This document shows, one piece after another, positions 1 to 8,650 of a DNA stretch of 36,324 nt (its first letter is position 1; the number at the start of each line of letters is the position of its first letter). The notes beneath the pieces were generated by a model, which saw nothing but the letters and a program-made list of their open reading frames with translations, was not told where the DNA came from and made no database searches. Origin of the DNA: Candidatus Woesearchaeota archaeon (GTDB lineage: Archaea > Nanobdellota > Nanobdellia > Pacearchaeales > GW2011-AR1); assembly GCA_964514585.1 (NCBI GenBank), contig CAZETU010000007.1, positions 1 through 36,324 on the forward strand, given 5' to 3'. The translations under genes and the position numbers were made by a program.

Positions 1-2
1 TT

Positions 3-176
3 AGTAGGATGAAAGAGAAGCTGAAAGTTTTGGAAAATTATGATAAGTGGTTTTTTGTTGTGACTGATAGAAATAAAGTGAGAAAATATAAGAAACATGG
101 AGATGCTGTTGACAAACGATATGTAAAATCTAGGCTAGATAAACTGATAAAAATGGCAAAAAAAGCCCAAAAATAG
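3..176 (+). CDS. 3' end of a gene entering from the left edge (…SRMKEKLKVLENYDKWFFVVTDRNKVRKYKKHG…KAQK*), function unknown
   Basis: Open frame from the window edge to TAG at 174-176, translated by hand; Lys-rich composition like neighbouring genes. Confidence 0.45.
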   Translation, partial: SRMKEKLKVLENYDKWFFVVTDRNKVRKYKKHGDAVDKRYVKSRLDKLIKMAKKAQK

Positions 177-245
177 GACTCTGGTTTTTCGGGTATCAAA
201 TAAGGTTTATCGTCGATTAGAATCGCTAGAAAAAGCCAAAGAGTC
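177..245. other. Imperfect stem-loop immediately after the upstream stop (possible terminator or structured UTR)
   Basis: GACTCTGGTTTT (177-188) pairs with AAAAGCCAAAGAGTC (231-245), with one bulge and one G-U pair; inner CGAT-TAGA-ATCG hairpin. Confidence 0.35.
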
Positions 246-304
246 AGTCGGCATAATATGTATATATGATAGTACGGACGTGGGGGCTTAACTGGGACGT
301 TTCG

Positions 305-346
305 TACGTCCACCAAATAGTAATATTTATAAATATGGTAGACGTA
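305..346 (+). promoter_or_regulatory. TATA box (TTTATAAA 326-333) of the fic gene flanked by an 11-bp inverted repeat (putative operator)
   Basis: TACGTCCACCA (305-315) / TGGTAGACGTA (336-346), 1 mismatch; perfect 14-bp palindrome ATATTTATAAATAT at 323-336; TATA starts 29 nt before the ATG. Confidence 0.55.
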
Positions 347-354
347 TAAAAAAC

Positions 355-1248
355 ATGGCTTACACAGAAATAAAAGAAAAGAATGGGAGGAAATATTATT
401 ACAGAGTAAAGTCCATTAAATTGAATGGCAGGGTATCAAAGGAACGAATCTATCTTGGAGTCAATTTAAACAAAGAAGAATTAATTAAAAAAGAAAAAGC
501 TGCAGATAAAAAATTAAACATTTTCGATATTGTTTTGACAAAAGATGAAGAAAAATTCCTAGAGCAAATTAAAAGAGATTTTTCGAAAGAGCCAAGGGAG
601 AATTATGAAAATAGGTATGAGGCTTTCTGTTCATTATTCACTCATGACTCCACAGGTATTGAAGGAAACACATTAACATTTTTAGAAACTTCTCATTTGT
701 TGTTTGAAGGAATTGTTCCAAGCACGAAATCCTTAAGGGAAGTTCATGAAATTTTGAATCACAAAAAGGCATTTGACTATATTCTAAATTACAAAAAAGA
801 CTTAACAAAAGAATTTATTTTGGGGTTGCATCATTTAGTTGTTGCAAATACCTTAAGAGAAGAGTTGGCTTCCCAGTCTGGAAAATATAGAACTGTTCAA
901 GTTTTTGTTGGACAACATATTCCACCAAAGCCCCATGAAGTTCCGAATAAAATGGCGACCTTGCTTAGATGGTATTCGGTCAACAAAAAGAAACTTCATC
1001 CAATAATTTTGGCTTCTCATTTTCATACAGAATTTGAAAAGATACATCCTTTTGTTGATGGCAATGGAAGGGTCGGGAGATTATTGATGAATTTTATCTT
1101 ACACAAGAATAAATATCCTATGGTAAATATTCCGAAGAAAAGGAGATTCAAATATTATGAAGTGCTACAAAATGCCCACAAAGGCAATTTGAAGGGCTTT
1201 GTCGGGCTTTTAATTGGCATTCTAAGGAAAGATAGGTTGAGGTTTTGA
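355..1248 (+). CDS. Fic-domain protein (AMPylase-type) with N-terminal inhibitory motif
   Basis: Intact Fic motif HPFVDGNGRVGR; STGIEGN fits the (S/T)xxxE(G/N) inhibitory helix; basic N-terminal extension. Confidence 0.92.
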   Translation: MAYTEIKEKNGRKYYYRVKSIKLNGRVSKERIYLGVNLNKEELIKKEKAADKKLNIFDIVLTKDEEKFLEQIKRDFSKEPRENYENRYEAFCSLFTHDSTGIEGNTLTFLETSHLLFEGIVPSTKSLREVHEILNHKKAFDYILNYKKDLTKEFILGLHHLVVANTLREELASQSGKYRTVQVFVGQHIPPKPHEVPNKMATLLRWYSVNKKKLHPIILASHFHTEFEKIHPFVDGNGRVGRLLMNFILHKNKYPMVNIPKKRRFKYYEVLQNAHKGNLKGFVGLLIGILRKDRLRF

Positions 1249-1375
1249 ATTAGTAGATGTTGTGAAGTTACCTTTATTTCTATTCATGAGTCGCACAGCA
1301 GGATAACTAATTATATTAATTACTCAGTAGTAACAATATAGAAAGATTTATAAACTGTTTTTTTATCAATATATT

Positions 1376-2167
1376 ATGACAAAAAGCATAAAAGTTGAAT
1401 CTCAAGTGATTCGAGGTTTTGAAGCATCTATTGCAGATAGTAAGCTCTATCAAGAAGTAGCCAAAGGTGTGGCTGAAAAATTTGGCAAAGATTCTAAGGC
1501 TTATCAAACATTAATGAATGGAATTGATACTAAAAATGGAACGGGTTCACAATTTTTCTTTAATACTGAAGCAGAATCATATCTTCCTGAAGGTCAAAGA
1601 GTTGCAAGATTAGCTGACCTTGGAAAAATTTATGATGCGGACACTTCTTTTTTTAAGGGAATTTATACCGATACTCCTGAATTAGTTTTAAGAACAGATA
1701 CTCCTTCGTGGAAAAATAATACTCCGATTTTGGAAAATTTAGTCAAGCAGGTAAGAGAAAGGGAATTAGAGTTTTCTTCAGATAACCCTTTAGTTCTTTC
1801 AGGTCTTGAATTAACTAGAGATGACAATAAAGCGAATCCTTATGGAATCTTGGTTAAAATAGGAGACAATACCGTTGCAGTAAATGACCTAAGATTTGCT
1901 TACGGAAAAGATAAAATTCAGGTTAGAAATAAAACAAAAACATTATGGACTAAAGATAAAGGGTTGTCTAGGGTTTATTTCGACAGGAACGGCTACGTCA
2001 GCTCCCGTGATGGCAACTTGCAGGTCTCCGATGGCGGTGGTCGGGTGGTGGTTTTTAACGCCGAAGGCGTCGCATCAGAAAATTTAGAATTTGAAGCTAT
2101 TAATCAAAAATATCAGTTTGATTTATCTACACTAAGAAATAAGATTGATGCTAAACTAGTACAATAA
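1376..2167 (+). CDS. DGR variable (target) protein, probably with a CLec-type fold as in archaeal DGR targets
   Basis: Contains the VR encoding LSRVYFDRNGYVSSRDGNLQVSDGGGRVVV; own TATA (1347-1354); the fold is inferred, not computed. Confidence 0.9.
   Translation: MTKSIKVESQVIRGFEASIADSKLYQEVAKGVAEKFGKDSKAYQTLMNGIDTKNGTGSQFFFNTEAESYLPEGQRVARLADLGKIYDADTSFFKGIYTDTPELVLRTDTPSWKNNTPILENLVKQVRERELEFSSDNPLVLSGLELTRDDNKANPYGILVKIGDNTVAVNDLRFAYGKDKIQVRNKTKTLWTKDKGLSRVYFDRNGYVSSRDGNLQVSDGGGRVVVFNAEGVASENLEFEAINQKYQFDLSTLRNKIDAKLVQ
1963..2042 (+). repeat. DGR variable region (VR)
   Basis: 80-bp ungapped match to 2338-2417 with 11 mismatches, all at TR adenines (9 A>G, 2 A>T). Confidence 0.95.
2058..2070 (+). 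promoter_or_regulatory. Post-VR hairpin ACGCC-GAA-GGCGT (candidate DGR target-recognition stem-loop)
   Basis: Perfect 5-bp stem with a GAA loop starting 16 nt after the VR core, inside the coding sequence. Confidence 0.7.
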
Positions 2168-2198
2168 AACCTATAAAGGGTTCTAATTTTCTAAGATT

Positions 2199-2228
2199 CC
2201 TAGCACCTTCATTGAAGAATGGGCTAGG
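2199..2228 (+). other. Stem-loop upstream of the TR (possible TR-RNA structural element or target terminator)
   Basis: CCTAGC (2199-2204) / GCTAGG (2223-2228) enclosing CTTCA-T-TGAAG. Confidence 0.45.
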
Positions 2229-2337
2229 CCACACGCTCTTTTATTAAGACTCTTGGGGTCAGTAAAATTCATTTGCGACAATTAGTAAAATATTGAACAT
2301 TGAAGCAAAGGTGGCAATTGGTAAAAAGAGCTACTCT

Positions 2338-2417
2338 GTTGTCTAGGGTTTATTTCAACAGGAACGGCAACGTCAACTCCCATAATGACAACTTGCAGAA
2401 CTCCAATGACGATGGTC
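2338..2417 (+). ncRNA. DGR template region (TR)
   Basis: AAC/AAT-rich copy of the VR, 24 adenines, located just upstream of the RT ATG. Confidence 0.93.
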
Positions 2418-2446
2418 TAATGGCCAAACCCTTGCTAGTTATACTT

Positions 2447-3487
2447 ATGAAAACTTACAATAAACTTTATCAGAAAATTTACTCTTATGGTAATCTATAC
2501 TCCGCATATCAAAAAGCAAGAAAAGGAAAAACTAAGAAACTTTATATTAAAGAATTTGAAAGTGATTTGGATAAAAATTTAATTGACCTCCAATTTGAAC
2601 TTATGAATTTTACCTATTCTCCGAGACCGTTAGATAATTTTATTCTTAAAGACCCAAAAACTAGAAAGATTTCAAGGTCACATTTTAGGGACAGAGTGAT
2701 TCATCATGCTATAATAAATATAATCGGAGCTATTTTTGAAAAGATATTTATCTATGATTCTTGTGCTAACCAAAAAGGAAAGGGCAATTTATTTTCAATT
2801 AAAAGATTTGAAACTTTTAGAAGAAAGATAACTAAGAATTTTAGTAGCAGAGCTTTCTGCCTAAAAGCAGATGTTAAACATTATTTTCAGGAAGTTGACC
2901 ATGAGATATTACTCAAAATAATCAAAAATAAAATTAAAGACAAGAAAGTTATATTGCTTATCAGAAAGACATTAAAAAAGAACGCTGGTGGTGAAAAAAC
3001 CAAAGGGATGCCTTTAGGAAATTTAACTAGTCAATTTTTCGCTAATGTTTATTTGAATGAGTTGGATTATTTTGTTAAATATCAATTAAAAGCTAAATAT
3101 TATATTCGCTATGTAGATGATTTTGTGATTCTTCATCAAAATAGAGAGCAACTTAATAAGTGGAAAAAGGAGATTGAAAATTTTTTGGCAGAAAAACTAA
3201 ATTTAGAACTTCATCCTCAGAAATCCAAAGTAGTTTCTTTATCAAAAGGCGTCGATTTCGTAGGGTTTAGAAACTTTTATCACTTTAAACTTTTGAGAAA
3301 AAGAAACCTTTGAAGTATGCTAAAGAAAATTGATACTTATAGGGATAAGCTAGTCAGCAAAGAGAAGATGATGGAAATTTTTCAGGGATGGAATGCCTAT
3401 GCAAAATGGGCTAACGCTTTCAAATTGCGGAAAAGTATTCTATCTAAAATAAATAAAATTCATATACTCAACCTCGACAATCCTTAA
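2447..3487 (+). pseudogene. DGR reverse transcriptase interrupted by an in-frame TGA at 3311-3313 (288 aa truncated; 346 aa if read through)
   Basis: Motifs RDRVIHHA, KADVKHYF, GMPLGNLTSQFFANVYLNELD, YIRYVDD, GVDFVGF; the same frame continues after the TGA as SMLKKI…FQGWNAYAKWANAFKLRK to TAA 3485-3487. Confidence 0.88.
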
Positions 3488-3544
3488 AAAGTCTACTAGT
3501 CTTACAAACAGCAACGATAAAATAAATATCAATCAAAACAAAAA

Positions 3545-3719
3545 TTTGTCCCCTGACGATGCCAAGAGTGGATGGTCGACGGCGGGAGCATTCATTTGAA
3601 CCCCTTGGGGTTTAAGGAAAATCCTTAGATTTTTCTTAGGAATCTTTGATTCCGGCCGAGCTTCTTTGAAGCGACAGCAAATCCCGGCGGGAGAATTTAA
3701 TCTTAAGCTTAAACCCCAA
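3545..3719. repeat. GC-rich intergenic element containing a 12-bp perfect inverted repeat and internal hairpins
   Basis: TTGGGGTTTAAG (3605-3616) / CTTAAACCCCAA (3708-3719); hairpins GCTTC-TTT-GAAGC and TCCC-GGC-GGGA; 9-bp direct repeat CGGCGGGAG (3580, 3685). Confidence 0.5.
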
Positions 3720-3734
3720 AAATCAAAACAACAC

Positions 3735-5681
3735 TCAATCAAAAGATAAAATTTTCTGAGCTTTATCATTACCTTTATTCGTAATAAAAATCCCTTTATT
3801 CCCCGTAACCTTCCCAGCAATTCGTGCATTTATTCCATTTTTAAGAGCAATCTGAATAACTTTTTCTGGCTCCGGAGTAACTATCAACATTCCATTCCCC
3901 ATATTCCAAGTAGTGTACGCTTCCTCATCTCGAATCTTACCAAGCTCTTGACAGTGCAGCATTATTTCCGAAGGTTCAAATAAATTATCTAGCTCTGCCC
4001 CAAGGTTACTCGGCTTCAAAATTCTTCCAAGTTTCCCAGGAATACCCCCTCCAGTAATATGAGCCACTCCATGAATCCTTGTTTTTATCCCCTCGCCAAT
4101 ACCCCCATAAGCATCAATAACAGCCTTAGAATATATTTTTGAAGGAGTCAAAACCAATCTCCCAATCAAACTCTCACCCAGTTTCTTATTATGCCACTCA
4201 TCCCCATAAGATTCCTGAAAAACTTTTCTTACAAGAGAAAGCCCATTCGACCTAAAACCATTTTCTTGAAATGCAACAATCGAATCTCCAGGTTTTATCT
4301 CATTCCCTGTAAACAATTTGTCCTTATCTGCAAACCAAACAACTGCCGCTCCCCAATTATAATTAAAAGGACCAAATCCCCCCACTCGAGTTCCCAGCTC
4401 CGCAACTTCTCCATTTACTATAGCCACATTAGCAGCCTTCGCCGCAGCGATATAACCCTTCGCCAATTGCTTAATCTGTTCAATATATGTCTCCCCATCC
4501 TTCCCCAAGGAATTAACATCAAGAATAGATCCTATAAGTACCGGCTCAGCTCCCCTCACTACCGCATCATCACAAACCATTGCGAACAAATCAAACGCAA
4601 TCGTGCTATGATCCCCCATTCTCTCAGCCAATTCCATTTTCGTCCCAACGCCATCAAATCCAATATTCATCAAAGTCCCACTCGGCAGATTAGAAACATC
4701 AATAGCTCTAACCCCACTAAAATCATCAAATGGAACAATTAATTCTCCAAGCTTCCCATCACGATTATTCCAAGTTTCTTTAGCAGCATTATACAAAACC
4801 TTAGACACATCATCCCCCAACTCAATATTAACCCCAGAATCCGCGTAAGTAAAACCCTCACTAGTCATTCCAGTTTCTTCAACATATTCAATCGCATTCC
4901 TAAAAATTTTCATCGCATCTTCATTCAACTCCGGAACTTCCTTCCCAAGTCTTTTCATTTTCTCCTTCTCCTTTTGAAAATCTGGAGAGCTTGCACTTAT
5001 AATTGCTCTCTCTGGATGTGGCATCATACCCAAAATTCTTCCGCTCTCATCACAAATTCCTGCTATATCTCTCGAGGCACCATTAGGATTGGCAGGAAAT
5101 ACTCCCCCAGCAGAATCACCGTTCAAAAGAGAATAAGTAAAAACAATCTGATCATTCCTCTCCAATTCATCTAAAACATTATCCTCAGCAAAAAACTTAC
5201 CCTCTCCATGTGCAACAGGGATATGTAACTTATCAAGTCCTTTCGCAAAAATACATTTTTTATTATTGACTTTCAAATTAACCCATCTGCATTCATACTT
5301 AGTCGAATTATTAAACGATAGCGCAACCTTTCTTTTGCCATACTCTTTATTCATCGCAGGTAATAATCCCAAATTAGTTAGTATCTGAAATCCATTACAA
5401 ATCCCAATTACAAGTTTCCCAGAATTGACAAACTCCATCAACTCATCCCAAAGATTCAATCGAATTTTATTAGCCATCGCATTCCCTGAACCAGTATCAT
5501 CCCCATAAGAGAAGCCCCCAGGAAAAGCCAAGATTTGATAATCGCTCAATTTTTTCTCCTTGCTAATAATATCATTTACATGAACAATTTCTGCATCTCC
5601 TCCAACCATATCAAATGCTCGCTTAGTTTCCCTTTCGCAATTTATTCCATATCCAGACAAGACTAATATTTTCGGTTTCAT
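3735..5681 (-). CDS. purQ/purM: Fusion of FGAM synthase glutaminase PurQ (aa ~1-270) and AIR synthase PurM (aa ~272-648)
   Basis: PurQ motifs GYGINCERET, PGGFSYGD, GICNGFQ, HGEG, MMPHPER; PurM motifs TYADSGVN, DGVGTK, AHITGGG. Confidence 0.9.
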   Translation of the reverse strand: MKPKILVLSGYGINCERETKRAFDMVGGDAEIVHVNDIISKEKKLSDYQILAFPGGFSYGDDTGSGNAMANKIRLNLWDELMEFVNSGKLVIGICNGFQILTNLGLLPAMNKEYGKRKVALSFNNSTKYECRWVNLKVNNKKCIFAKGLDKLHIPVAHGEGKFFAEDNVLDELERNDQIVFTYSLLNGDSAGGVFPANPNGASRDIAGICDESGRILGMMPHPERAIISASSPDFQKEKEKMKRLGKEVPELNEDAMKIFRNAIEYVEETGMTSEGFTYADSGVNIELGDDVSKVLYNAAKETWNNRDGKLGELIVPFDDFSGVRAIDVSNLPSGTLMNIGFDGVGTKMELAERMGDHSTIAFDLFAMVCDDAVVRGAEPVLIGSILDVNSLGKDGETYIEQIKQLAKGYIAAAKAANVAIVNGEVAELGTRVGGFGPFNYNWGAAVVWFADKDKLFTGNEIKPGDSIVAFQENGFRSNGLSLVRKVFQESYGDEWHNKKLGESLIGRLVLTPSKIYSKAVIDAYGGIGEGIKTRIHGVAHITGGGIPGKLGRILKPSNLGAELDNLFEPSEIMLHCQELGKIRDEEAYTTWNMGNGMLIVTPEPEKVIQIALKNGINARIAGKVTGNKGIFITNKGNDKAQKILSFD

Positions 5682-8650
5682 CAGTAATCCTTAAACCTCT
5701 CTTTGTATTTATTTGACAAATCCTTAATATTCAAATCTATAATCTCATCGCCTTTCAGTCCAACCACACTAAAATCATCCTCGGTAATTTGACCAATCTT
5801 AGAAAAACTAACCTCTTTAAAAATTTCCTCAAAAACCCCTTGATTTTCAGGAGCAATCGTTACAACAATCCTAGATTGACTCTCACTAAACAAAGCAAAA
5901 TCATCTCTTTCAATTCCTAAAGAATTCAGTTTGCCTAAATCAATCTTAGCACCCAAATTTCCCGCAATACAAGTTTTTGCCAAAGCAACCCCAAGCCCAC
6001 CATTATTAACAGGTATACTACTAGAAATTATTTGCTTGTCAATCGCACCACTAAGTGCAGAATATAATTTTATTGCTTTTTCAGCATCTACCTTAGGAAC
6101 TTTATTGCCGACATAAGGTTTATTCTCAGCCTTCTCCCCCACGAGTTCAAAATATTCGCTCGCGCCCAATTCATTTTTTGTTTCACCGATTACATAAATC
6201 AAATCTCCAACAAACTTAGCATCAAGAGAAACCAGTTTCCTATAATCCTCAACAACACTTATCGAAGATATGAGTAACGTTGGCGAAACTGAAATTTTCA
6301 AAGGAATATTATTTTCATCATAACCCTTAAAATCATTAAACATACTATCCTTCCCAGAAATAAAAGGAGTCTTATATGCAACAGCATAATCATAACAAGC
6401 TTTAGCTGCAGCCTTCAATTGCCCCAATCTTTCAGGGTCCTCAGAGCTACACCAACAAAAATTATCCATTATAGCGAGCTTATCTAAATTGCCCCCCGCA
6501 GAAACAGTATTCCTAATTGCAGTGTCAATCGCACAAGCAGCCATATCATAAGTATCAATTTTACTATATTTCGAAGTAATACCCTGACTAGTAACTATTG
6601 CCTTCTTGGAATCATATAGCGGTTTTGTTGCAGTCGCATAAGCGTTAACTTCTCCGACCCCCTGCAAAGGTTTCAAAACAGAAGTCGCTTGAACCTCGTG
6701 ATCATATTGTCTAGAGATAAACTCGAAACTCGAAACGTTATGTCTAGTTAGCATTTCTTGCAAAGTTTTTGTCAAATCAAAAGGACATGGGAAATCGGGT
6801 TCCTCATATGTTTGCCTAGTATACGTAGAGACTAACTTTTTCTTTGGCACACCATCATGTAAAAAATCCATATCTATGTCAAGAATTTCTCTCTCATTAT
6901 ATTTTACAATAGCTCTATCCGTATCATTAAATGTCCCAATAGCCGTCGCTTCAACTCCCCTTTTCTCCATGAGGTTTAGAAACTCTTGAAGATTATTTTC
7001 TGGAACAGATAAAGTCATTCTTTCTTGAGATTCACTAATCCATATTTCCCAAGGCTGAATCCCATCATACTTAACTGGAACTTTTTCTAAATCTACAATA
7101 AAGCCCCCGCACTCTTTCGCCATCTCTGCAACAGAACACGAAAGTCCCCCCGCCCCGTTGTCAGTAATGCTATTATATAATTCAAGGTCTCGTGCCTCTT
7201 TTACGACGGCATCACTCAGTTTTTTTTGAGTTATTGGGTCTCCAATCTGAACTGCAGTCGCAGGACTTCCAGAATCCAAAGCCTCCGAAGAAAAAGTCGC
7301 TCCATGTATACCATCTTTTCCAACCCTACCTCCAATTACAACAACAGAATCTCCAGCCTTTGCTTGTTTTTCGTGAGATTGCTTTCCGTTTATAGTTCTC
7401 GGCATCAGACCAATTGTCCCAACAAAAATCAAGGGCTTCCCTCTATAACTATCATCAAAATAAACAAACCCCTGAGGTGTTGGTATACCCGAACAATTTC
7501 CCCCAACCTTTACACCATCAATTACTCCTTCCATTATTCTCTTTGGAGAAAGCGCCGGATTTGTTTTGTCTTTCCCTCTGAATAAAACACTCTTATCTTC
7601 AGGATAACCAAGACAGTAGCCATATCTATTTATTATCGGCATTGCTCCAAGGCCAACCCCAATAGTATCCCTATTCACTCCAACAATTCCAGTAATTGAA
7701 CCTCCAAATGGATCCAACGCCGACGGACTATTGTGAGTCTCCACCTTATCGGTTACCAAATAATTTTCATCAAAAATTATTGCCCCAGAATTATCCTTAA
7801 AAACCGAAACACAAAAATCCCGGTCTCCCATTTCTTTTCTTATCTTGTTTGTAGCATTCTGGACATATTCCTTATAGATACCATTCTTTATTTCATCAAG
7901 CTGATTTGCAAAAATAGTATGCTTACAATGTTCAGACCAAGTTTGAGCAATAGACTCCAGTTCTATATCCGTCGGCATTCTACTCTCTTTCTTAAAATAA
8001 TCTTTAATTGTCCTCATAGATTCTAAGTCAAGCGCTAAAGGACCTCTTTTTGAACCATCTTCATTTTCAATACCCTGTTTACCCAATTTAGTTAGGTCTA
8101 AATCATCAACATCTAATCTAACAGTATCTACCTTAGGCTCTTGAGTTAATTTAACTTTTGGCACAATTCTATCCATTCCCCCGTCGAGCCTATATTGAGA
8201 ACCACTTTTTATATGAATTCTTTGAATTGCCTTATTCGCAAGGTCTTCGGCAATATAGCTTACTTCTTCTTTTGTCAAATCTCCATTCAAGAAAATTATT
8301 TGAGAGGTAAATACAGAAATCTTATCCAATTTAATATTAAGAAGATCCTGAATACATTCTTGTGCAGTATTCGCCACATTGTCAGTTACTCCAGGAAGAA
8401 AACCAATCTCAATAATCCAATCAGCCTCAGTCTTTACCGAAGAGTTAATTTCATGTTTTTGAGTTATTGGATTTGTAAGCATCTTTGCCACCTTCTCCAA
8501 TTCCTCATTAGAAAAATCATAGTCAAGAGTATATGCATGCGCCAACCCTACTTCCTGTAATTTAGAAAACCCCAGGCCCCTTATTCTTTTTTTAATAATT
8601 AATGCCTGAGTGTCAGAAATTTTTGAGGTCACCTCAATTTCACTCACCAT
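5681..8650 (-). CDS. purL: Phosphoribosylformylglycinamidine synthase PurL with an N-terminal PurS-like extension (989 aa from ATG 8650)
   Basis: QTWSEHCKH, KVETHNSPSALDPFGGSITG, GRVGKDGIHGATFSS, DNGAGG, SESQER, SGKDS; TGATG overlap with purQ/M. Confidence 0.95.
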   Translation of the reverse strand: MVSEIEVTSKISDTQALIIKKRIRGLGFSKLQEVGLAHAYTLDYDFSNEELEKVAKMLTNPITQKHEINSSVKTEADWIIEIGFLPGVTDNVANTAQECIQDLLNIKLDKISVFTSQIIFLNGDLTKEEVSYIAEDLANKAIQRIHIKSGSQYRLDGGMDRIVPKVKLTQEPKVDTVRLDVDDLDLTKLGKQGIENEDGSKRGPLALDLESMRTIKDYFKKESRMPTDIELESIAQTWSEHCKHTIFANQLDEIKNGIYKEYVQNATNKIRKEMGDRDFCVSVFKDNSGAIIFDENYLVTDKVETHNSPSALDPFGGSITGIVGVNRDTIGVGLGAMPIINRYGYCLGYPEDKSVLFRGKDKTNPALSPKRIMEGVIDGVKVGGNCSGIPTPQGFVYFDDSYRGKPLIFVGTIGLMPRTINGKQSHEKQAKAGDSVVVIGGRVGKDGIHGATFSSEALDSGSPATAVQIGDPITQKKLSDAVVKEARDLELYNSITDNGAGGLSCSVAEMAKECGGFIVDLEKVPVKYDGIQPWEIWISESQERMTLSVPENNLQEFLNLMEKRGVEATAIGTFNDTDRAIVKYNEREILDIDMDFLHDGVPKKKLVSTYTRQTYEEPDFPCPFDLTKTLQEMLTRHNVSSFEFISRQYDHEVQATSVLKPLQGVGEVNAYATATKPLYDSKKAIVTSQGITSKYSKIDTYDMAACAIDTAIRNTVSAGGNLDKLAIMDNFCWCSSEDPERLGQLKAAAKACYDYAVAYKTPFISGKDSMFNDFKGYDENNIPLKISVSPTLLISSISVVEDYRKLVSLDAKFVGDLIYVIGETKNELGASEYFELVGEKAENKPYVGNKVPKVDAEKAIKLYSALSGAIDKQIISSSIPVNNGGLGVALAKTCIAGNLGAKIDLGKLNSLGIERDDFALFSESQSRIVVTIAPENQGVFEEIFKEVSFSKIGQITEDDFSVVGLKGDEIIDLNIKDLSNKYKERFKDY

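Follow-up and report, generated by a model that had tools for sequence, protein, structure and literature searches.

The first part of contig CAZETU010000007.1 (contig C7), from a Candidatus Woesearchaeota archaeon (GCA_964514585.1), carries a cassette in which a target gene containing a variable repeat (VR) is followed by a structured RNA of the Rfam family RT-16, a template repeat (TR) and a reverse transcriptase (RT) gene (Table 1). The stretch that we analyzed, called the window below, comprises the first 36,324 nucleotides of this contig, which begins 1.3 kb upstream of the cassette; the genome amounts to 1.04 Mb in 18 contigs and is 89.65% complete. The cassette is a genuine diversity-generating retroelement (DGR), very probably a chromosomal one of a DPANN archaeon that does without the accessory protein Avd and has the order target, RNA leader, TR, RT. 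An earlier note, made from the sequence of this DNA, had called it an archaeal DGR with adenine-specific mutagenesis, and the RT type, the host genes and the TR/VR pattern all agree with that call. The window encodes the RNase P p30 subunit and archaeal-type PheRS alpha and beta chains, the nearest public relatives of the target gene come from metagenome-assembled genomes labelled Woesearchaeota, Pacearchaeota and Nanoarchaeota, and the Atlas clusters nearest to the genome are Nanobdellota. These observations support a DPANN (Nanobdellota-type) host.

Table 1. Features of the retroelement cassette and its flanks, in window coordinates
Feature	Position	Strand	Remarks
Target (variable-protein) gene	1376..2167	+	Open reading frame (ORF), 263 aa; residues 1-231 modelled as a C-type-lectin fold, C-terminal helix 235-262
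VR	1963..2042	+	Residues 196-223 of the target; 80-nt repeat with 11 A-specific differences
G-rich VR 3' flank GGGTGGTGG	2043..2051	+	Counterpart after the TR is TAATGGCCA; fixed difference like that of initiation of mutagenic homing (IMH) site and IMH*
GC hairpin in DNA	2058..2070	+	5-bp stem, GAA loop; from DNA fold
TATA-like box CCTATAAAGG	2170..2179	+	About 25 nt before the RT-16 5' end; candidate template-RNA promoter, read from sequence
RT-16 RNA (Rfam RF03019)	2199..2339	+	Structured TR leader; 83.3 bits against a gathering score of 50, E 4.5e-13, model positions 1-158
p strand	2223..2231	+	Pairs just 3' of the TR; ends in A2231, an A in all 30 loci compared, before conserved CACG
Outer RT-16 helix P2, 5' strand	2235..2241	+	3 nt after p; Rfam consensus; 99% of cells paired, 5 compensatory pairs
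P2, 3' strand	2325..2331	+	6 nt before the TR; candidate stop for cDNA synthesis
TR	2338..2417	+	24 A; six AAC and two AAT codons
t strand, partner of p	2421..2429	+	After two unpaired A (2419-2420)
Distal closing strand UGCUAG	2433..2438	+	Pairs with the RT-16 5' end, 2200-2205 (CUAGCA); also in the RNAfold centroid
RT gene	2447..3313	+	288 codons, then TGA; RVT_1 E 7e-23; motifs LGNLTSQ and YVDD
Premature stop TGA	3311..3313	+	AGA (Arg) in the other allele; same TGA in the independent assembly L050
Cut-off C-terminal part of RT	3314..3487	+	57 codons (thumb region); same frame, still open, recognizable RT C-terminal sequence
GC-rich element after RT	3547..3591	.	Identical in both RT alleles; similarity to contig C10 stops here

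In a repeat search of the first 6 kb of the window, the VR and TR form the sole strong direct repeat: 80 nt, ungapped, 86% identical and 375 nt apart. All 11 mismatches fall on adenines of the TR (9 A>G, 2 A>T), leaving 13 adenines in the VR against 24 in the TR; the probability that 11 mismatches would all fall on the 24 A sites of 80 is 2.4e-7. A script recount reproduces the alignment and differences given in the earlier note, and its arithmetic of 4^24 = 2.8e14 possible DNA variants is correct. The 80-nt core it delimited also stands, except that the similarity runs a few bases past 2042 and 2417, with a fixed AAT/GGT difference. Every VR difference lies at codon position 1 or 2 of the ORF at 1376-2167. 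Read in frame, the TR offers 16 variable codons and 9.45e13 protein variants, and a stop codon is impossible. The note had also proposed searching the genome with the TR for remote VRs. This was done with blastn and a profile search, and neither remote VRs nor further targets were found in the 89.65%-complete genome.

A second strain provides an independent check on adenine specificity. Contig L049, from another sample, aligns to window positions 1312-2248 with 5 changes outside the VR and 16 inside it; the latter are 13 substitutions and one 3-nt deletion, and every substituted position is a TR adenine. In an alignment of 34 proteins of the target family, the VR columns vary freely and the flanking GLSRV and GRVVVF are fixed. 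Judging from these sequences, the VR has been diversified since two near-identical strains split; present-day activity is outside what assemblies show. The past mutagenesis described earlier holds, and this recent activity at the strain level had been overlooked. An ordinary duplication that diverged by chance beside an unrelated reverse transcriptase has only the short length of the repeat (80 nt) in its favor. It would have to account for 11 of 11 differences at TR adenines (P = 2.4e-7), for the same architecture and A-specific differences in 31 of 33 RT-16 loci, and for the second set of changes limited to A sites in L049; we reject it as hardly credible. Relative L008 has two target genes in tandem (L008:4496-4993 and 5001-5768) whose VRs both derive from one TR; A sites account for 12 of 14 differences in the first and for 8 of 10 in the second.

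The RT is of the DGR type, to judge from LGxxxSQ in motif 4 and YxDD. Its best solved relative is bRT of Bordetella phage BPP-1 (8ub7_A, E 8.8e-37), followed by a group II intron RT (1.9e-20); retron RTs match with E-values of 7e-19 and weaker. The earlier note drew the RT frame through to 3487, but an in-frame TGA interrupts it and the cassette is not intact; that is, the window copy lacks the uninterrupted RT frame by which a functional DGR cassette is recognized. The TGA lies where the alignment to bRT reaches residue 276 of 328, so that the truncation, as predicted from the sequence, removes about 57 residues at the end of the thumb. Recoding of TGA (codes 4 or 25, or selenocysteine) was considered and rejected: none of the 36 tRNAs in the genome has a UCA anticodon, a tRNA-Trp(CCA) is encoded in the window, and TGA terminates 84 of 408 long open frames (21%) in the genome. 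Since the tRNA is missing and TGA is a common terminator, the codon is a premature stop, and the cassette in this genome is probably silent unless an intact RT allele, described below, is also present.

Interrupted RT genes recur in the family. The assemblies show breaks in 8 of 23 complete related RT genes: five stem from G9-12, (CT)9 or (AG)7 runs before the GMPLGNLTSQ motif, two from other frameshifts and one, that of the window, from its nonsense codon. Simple repeats (G8-G12, (CT)9 or (AG)7) occur in this RT loop in seven genes, out of frame in L009, L022, L026, L034 and L046 and in frame in L023 and L025; from their sequence they look like a slippage on/off switch. The same loop in the window has AGG-type Gly codons and no repeat. 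Elsewhere in the window RT, six clustered changes at 2951-2974 set it apart from four other assemblies. L048 differs from all other loci in that its RT, downstream of RT-16 and the TR, is encoded on the opposite strand. An archaeal RNase P RNA gene (L009:9161-9502) is found about 2 kb downstream of the L009 DGR.

The earlier description had the TR and VR right and overlooked both the RT-16 RNA that abuts the TR and the helices that close the TR. RT-16 was found in 35 of the 151 genomes of the phylum sample. The TR starts between -8 and +7 nt from the RT-16 3' end in 31 of 33 loci, with an A-mutagenized VR upstream; the other two loci are truncated at the end of a contig. Only 29 nt separate the TR from the start of the RT in the window, and relatives have 16-85 nt at this place, which leaves no spacer like that of BPP-1. 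No ORF that could encode Avd lies between the genes, and PF05635 was not found in the genome as assembled (89.65% complete). In Weinberg et al. 2017 (PMC5737381), RT-10 alone is linked to a DGR, and RT-16 has no assignment. In the window the Rfam model is matched over its full length and above its gathering score by what is here a TR leader, and the model lacks two helices in which the post-TR sequence takes part.

These two long-range helices, which extend from RT-16 into the 20 nt after the TR, were revealed by a comparison of 30 loci. The first, p/t, has 9 pairs, 7 of them with changes on both sides, and 81.6% of its cells are paired; in an anchored count, 224 of 270 cells are paired, against 177 +/- 5.6 with shuffled partners. 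Taken together with the adjacent P2, 89% of cells are paired, compared with 68.8 +/- 1.4 in shuffles (none of 500 reached the observed value) and at most 55% in slid registers. In the window itself, 7 of the 9 p/t positions pair, 5 of them contiguously (GGCCA/UGGCC; 2227-2231 with 2421-2425). For the second, distal helix, the best pairing averages 7.47 bp between cognate strands and 6.25 +/- 0.24 bp with shuffled partners, and 12 bp is reached in relatives. Three positions of a small RT-16 hairpin (2251, 2252 and 2255) are changed in the window relative to four other assemblies, with the pairing preserved (U-G, C-G to C-G, U-G).

The arrangement of these strands can be compared with that of BPP-1, a DGR of the order mtd-avd-TR-Sp-brt for which structures of the bRT-Avd-RNA complex are available (8ub7-8ube; bioRxiv 10.1101/2023.10.23.563531). 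The BPP-1 RNA runs from an upstream stop strand through the TR, with the template strand at its 3' end, to an Avd-binding stem-loop, a primer strand ending in A56, two nucleotides, a second stop strand and the RT-binding elements (bioRxiv 10.1101/2023.10.23.563531). The window RNA runs from a primer-like strand ending in A2231 through three nucleotides, the P2 5' strand, the inner RT-16 domain, the P2 3' strand and six nucleotides to the TR and the template-side strand. In other words, the cycle of elements is the same, and in the window it is opened exactly where the Avd-binding stem-loop would be. Both systems have a duplex at the 3' edge of the TR that ends in an adenosine, 2-3 nt from a second duplex abutting the 5' edge of the TR; they also share LGxxxSQ, A-specific mutagenesis and a GC hairpin after the VR, bRT being the closest solved RT. 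They differ in that BPP-1 has an Avd gene and a 140-nt spacer, whereas in the window no such gene was found and 29 nt separate the TR from the RT start, and in that the structured RNA lies downstream of the TR in BPP-1 and, circularly permuted, upstream of it in the window.

From this comparison we tentatively propose, at somewhat less than even confidence, that the template RNA of Avd-less DPANN DGRs corresponds to the BPP-1 RNA core in circularly permuted form. The primer strand (with A2231), the stop strand and the RT-binding domain would all lie upstream of the TR, as RT-16, and the circle would be open where the Avd stem-loop sits. The alternative pairing of P1 and the post-TR strands may gate reverse transcription, and the RT would often be kept off, by slippery repeats in relatives and by the nonsense allele here. 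Because the cycle of elements is shared with the BPP-1 core, priming in cis at A2231, synthesis across the TR and a stop at P2 may be suggested for the window as well. One transcript, for which the TATA-like box may be the promoter, would start near 2199 and carry RT-16, the TR and the RT message. The RT would bind the RT-16 core, and the p/t helix (2227-2231 with 2421-2425) would set the 3' end of the TR in the active site. The cDNA would be primed in cis from the invariant A2231, by analogy with A56 of Sp in BPP-1, run through the TR with misincorporation opposite A, and halt at P2 just upstream of the TR, a role suggested by analogy with the cPRT Stop duplex. With the G-rich flank and the hairpin as guides, the cDNA would then replace the VR.

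The helices between RT-16 and the post-TR sequence might instead act as a regulatory switch, for example by masking or freeing the RT start codon, or as a structure for processing or stability of the transcript, and have no part in priming. The post-TR strands resemble both strands of the P1 hairpin, so the local and long-range pairings would be alternatives, with two local hairpins in one fold and two long-range helices in the other, and the RT ATG lies 8 nt past the distal strand; both points are what a switch would predict. On the other hand, the p strand with its invariant A, the 3-nt linker, the strand of the stop helix and the template's first base 5' of the duplex match the BPP-1 core element by element, and the TR-side strand has a counterpart at the VR, as IMH* has IMH. 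We consider a purely regulatory or stabilizing role rather unlikely.

Several findings weigh against the overall reading of the cassette as an Avd-less DGR with the mechanism outlined above and should be set beside the evidence for it. The long-range helices in the window are short, with 5 and 6 contiguous bp, and single-sequence folding of 2195-2450 is no better than that of shuffles (z = -0.01). The p/t helix overlaps the base of the Rfam P1 hairpin, and full coexistence of the two is impossible in some loci. The putative roles of A2231 as primer and P2 as stop are assigned purely from topology. One identical VR is present in five assemblies of the window's lineage, which fits a silent element or simply one clone. 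Finally, the fold matches of the target model, described below, have middling Z-scores of 6 to 7.8.

The broken RT allele is not the only one. Contig C10 of this bin opens part-way through an RT gene with 92.7% identity to window positions 3070-3591; at the site of the TGA it reads AGA (Arg), and a methyltransferase gene comes next. In public assemblies, four more contigs code for exactly the same target protein. One of these, L050, is a separate 52.7-kb ENA contig that is 99.8% identical to window positions 1-5167, carries the TGA allele and continues into a purQ-purM gene. L051 has the identical Fic gene, target, VR and TR with the AGA allele, an uninterrupted RT of 346 aa, followed by the methyltransferase. 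L052 and L053 end where the alleles diverge, their ends already being of the second RT type; because the contigs break exactly at the divergence, both alleles must co-occur in those samples. The TGA allele is thus reproducible, and the intact allele co-occurs with it. The two could be two loci in one genome or two strains.

These alleles bear on whether the cassette might still be active, in one of three ways: the intact RT 3' allele of C10 could belong to a second copy acting on the TR, the pieces of a split RT (288 aa, and 56 aa restarting at ATG 3317) could cooperate, or the TGA could occasionally be read through. Such activity would draw on C10, which starts in an RT gene with Arg at the stop position, on L051, which links the same Fic gene, target, VR and TR to an intact allele, on the two alleles implied for the L052 and L053 samples, and on the cut-off part of the RT, which is still open and has an ATG 3 nt past the TGA. 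However, a bin that mixes two strains would account for C10 just as well, no suppressor tRNA is present and TGA serves as an ordinary stop codon, the five assemblies share a single VR, and the lost part of the RT, aligning after residue 276 of 328 of bRT, is the thumb. We regard continued activity in this genome as doubtful, and silence of the window copy as the better description. A related cassette was seen on L006, a Nanoarchaeota contig of 5031 nt with identical 136-nt ends (1-136 and 4896-5031). A circular element of about 4.9 kb might explain these ends, as could an assembly artefact. The contig carries three unannotated ORFs, a target, RT-16 and a TR, together with an intact RT that shares 87% identity with that of the window.

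Downstream of the VR lie candidate elements for target recognition, predicted from the sequence as an IMH-like flank and a GC hairpin. At the 3' edge of the repeat, the TR has AAT and the VR has GGT in nearly all related loci, a fixed difference that is no product of mutagenesis and resembles that of IMH* and IMH. GC-rich hairpins of at least 5 bp follow 24 of 35 VRs, compared with 1 of 35 TRs; their loops are GAA in 12 cases and GGA in 6, and their stems vary. Taken alone, the window hairpin is not significant against shuffles in a DNA fold (z = -0.17), and its support is comparative. It underlies the conserved peptide NAEGV, just before residues 231-237, which are disordered in the model (pLDDT below 50). 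Since this conserved peptide stands beside a disordered stretch, the conservation may reflect a constraint on the DNA. Retrohoming of BPP-1 depends on a GC hairpin located after the VR (PMC3240598).

The target itself matched nothing in Pfam and NCBIfam searches, and none of its 40 homologs is annotated. An AlphaFold (AF2) model built from the alignment of homologs has a pLDDT of 90.9 and a pTM of 0.82, and in this model the target has a C-type-lectin (CLec) fold with the VR near the C-terminus, which is the fold that the earlier note expected structure prediction to give. The best 50 VIA-align rows for the model are all folds of the C-type-lectin type (CLec, formylglycine-generating-enzyme or invasin-type), including 5vf4, 2y3c, 1yu0 and 5ioo; Z-scores against DGR proteins are 6.9 for TaqVP, 6.4 for TvpA, 6.4 for Mtd and 6.2 for Nanoarchaeota AvpA. 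The assignment came only from this exhaustive aligner, on a predicted model, and Foldseek against the PDB gave nothing below E 0.2. The VR, a loop-rich stretch, ends 40 residues before the C-terminus, and no signal peptide is visible in the target sequence, as had been noted before; no membrane segment is visible either.

Relatives of the target also occur at sites that have neither RT-16 nor an RT within 5 kb. One such homolog, with 79% identity, sits on a 45-kb contig labelled Candidatus Dojkabacteria, a bacterium of the candidate phyla radiation (CPR) (L007, JAFCCB010000002.1); misbinning or transfer of the gene might account for it, or it may be an orphan target. The others are four target-family paralogs of a single Pacearchaeota genome (L011, L012, L014 and L015).

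The first accounts of DGRs in DPANN archaea date from 2015-2017, and in a published catalogue 29% of the elements have architecture A and lack an accessory gene. With the DPANN/Nanoarchaeota DGRs (Paul et al. 2015, PMC4372165; 'CPR set' and architecture A1 in Wu et al. 2018, PMC5758913) and the variable protein AvpA (PDB 5ioo), the window cassette shares a small archaeal genome, the order target-TR-RT, the lack of an accessory gene, an AAY-rich TR and a target of C-type-lectin fold. The match to AvpA is at the level of the fold only (Z 6.2, 9% identity), the window target having no Pfam or NCBIfam model. In contrast to these DGRs, the VR is internal, with 40 residues including a long helix after it, and the RT is truncated by a nonsense codon. 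The cassette is ordinary for its group apart from the broken RT and the conserved template RNA. Retrons offer a further comparison: as in msr-msd RNA, the region that is copied is preceded by a structured RNA and closed off by pairing of the terminal strands, and priming in cis from a 2'-OH is plausible. Unlike a retron, the window has an RT of the DGR clade and no effector gene, and its cDNA rewrites a gene.

The surroundings of the cassette show further repeats. The flanks of the upstream Fic gene (window 1-290 and 1160-1246), plus the preceding gene, are 86-91% identical to a paralogous region (G000:C1:127137-129499) in which the insert differs; the neighborhood of the Fic gene is duplicated or mobile. 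A second DGR on contig C1 was considered and rejected, as only the Fic-gene flanks are paralogous there. Downstream of the RT, an AT-rich segment (3462-3543), of which contig C3 has three partial copies, precedes a GC-rich stretch (3547-3700). The first 45 nt of this stretch are the same in both RT alleles and are kept in L006, and an Rfam search of the stretch found no family at E up to 1. The motif GGCGGGAG occurs twice after the RT (3583-3590 and 3686-3693) and is confined to close relatives.

As a DGR, the cassette adds little to the thousands of such elements already catalogued in DPANN and CPR genomes. What it contributes is a concrete, testable role for the Rfam family RT-16, as the leader of the TR. 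A minimal RNA of about 250 nt (2199-2446) with defined helices could show how a DGR RT functions free of Avd. The target family, of about 260 aa with a predicted lectin fold and no signal peptide, is unannotated and widespread in Nanobdellota, and the broken and intact RT alleles on the same TR and VR form a natural on/off comparison for diversification.

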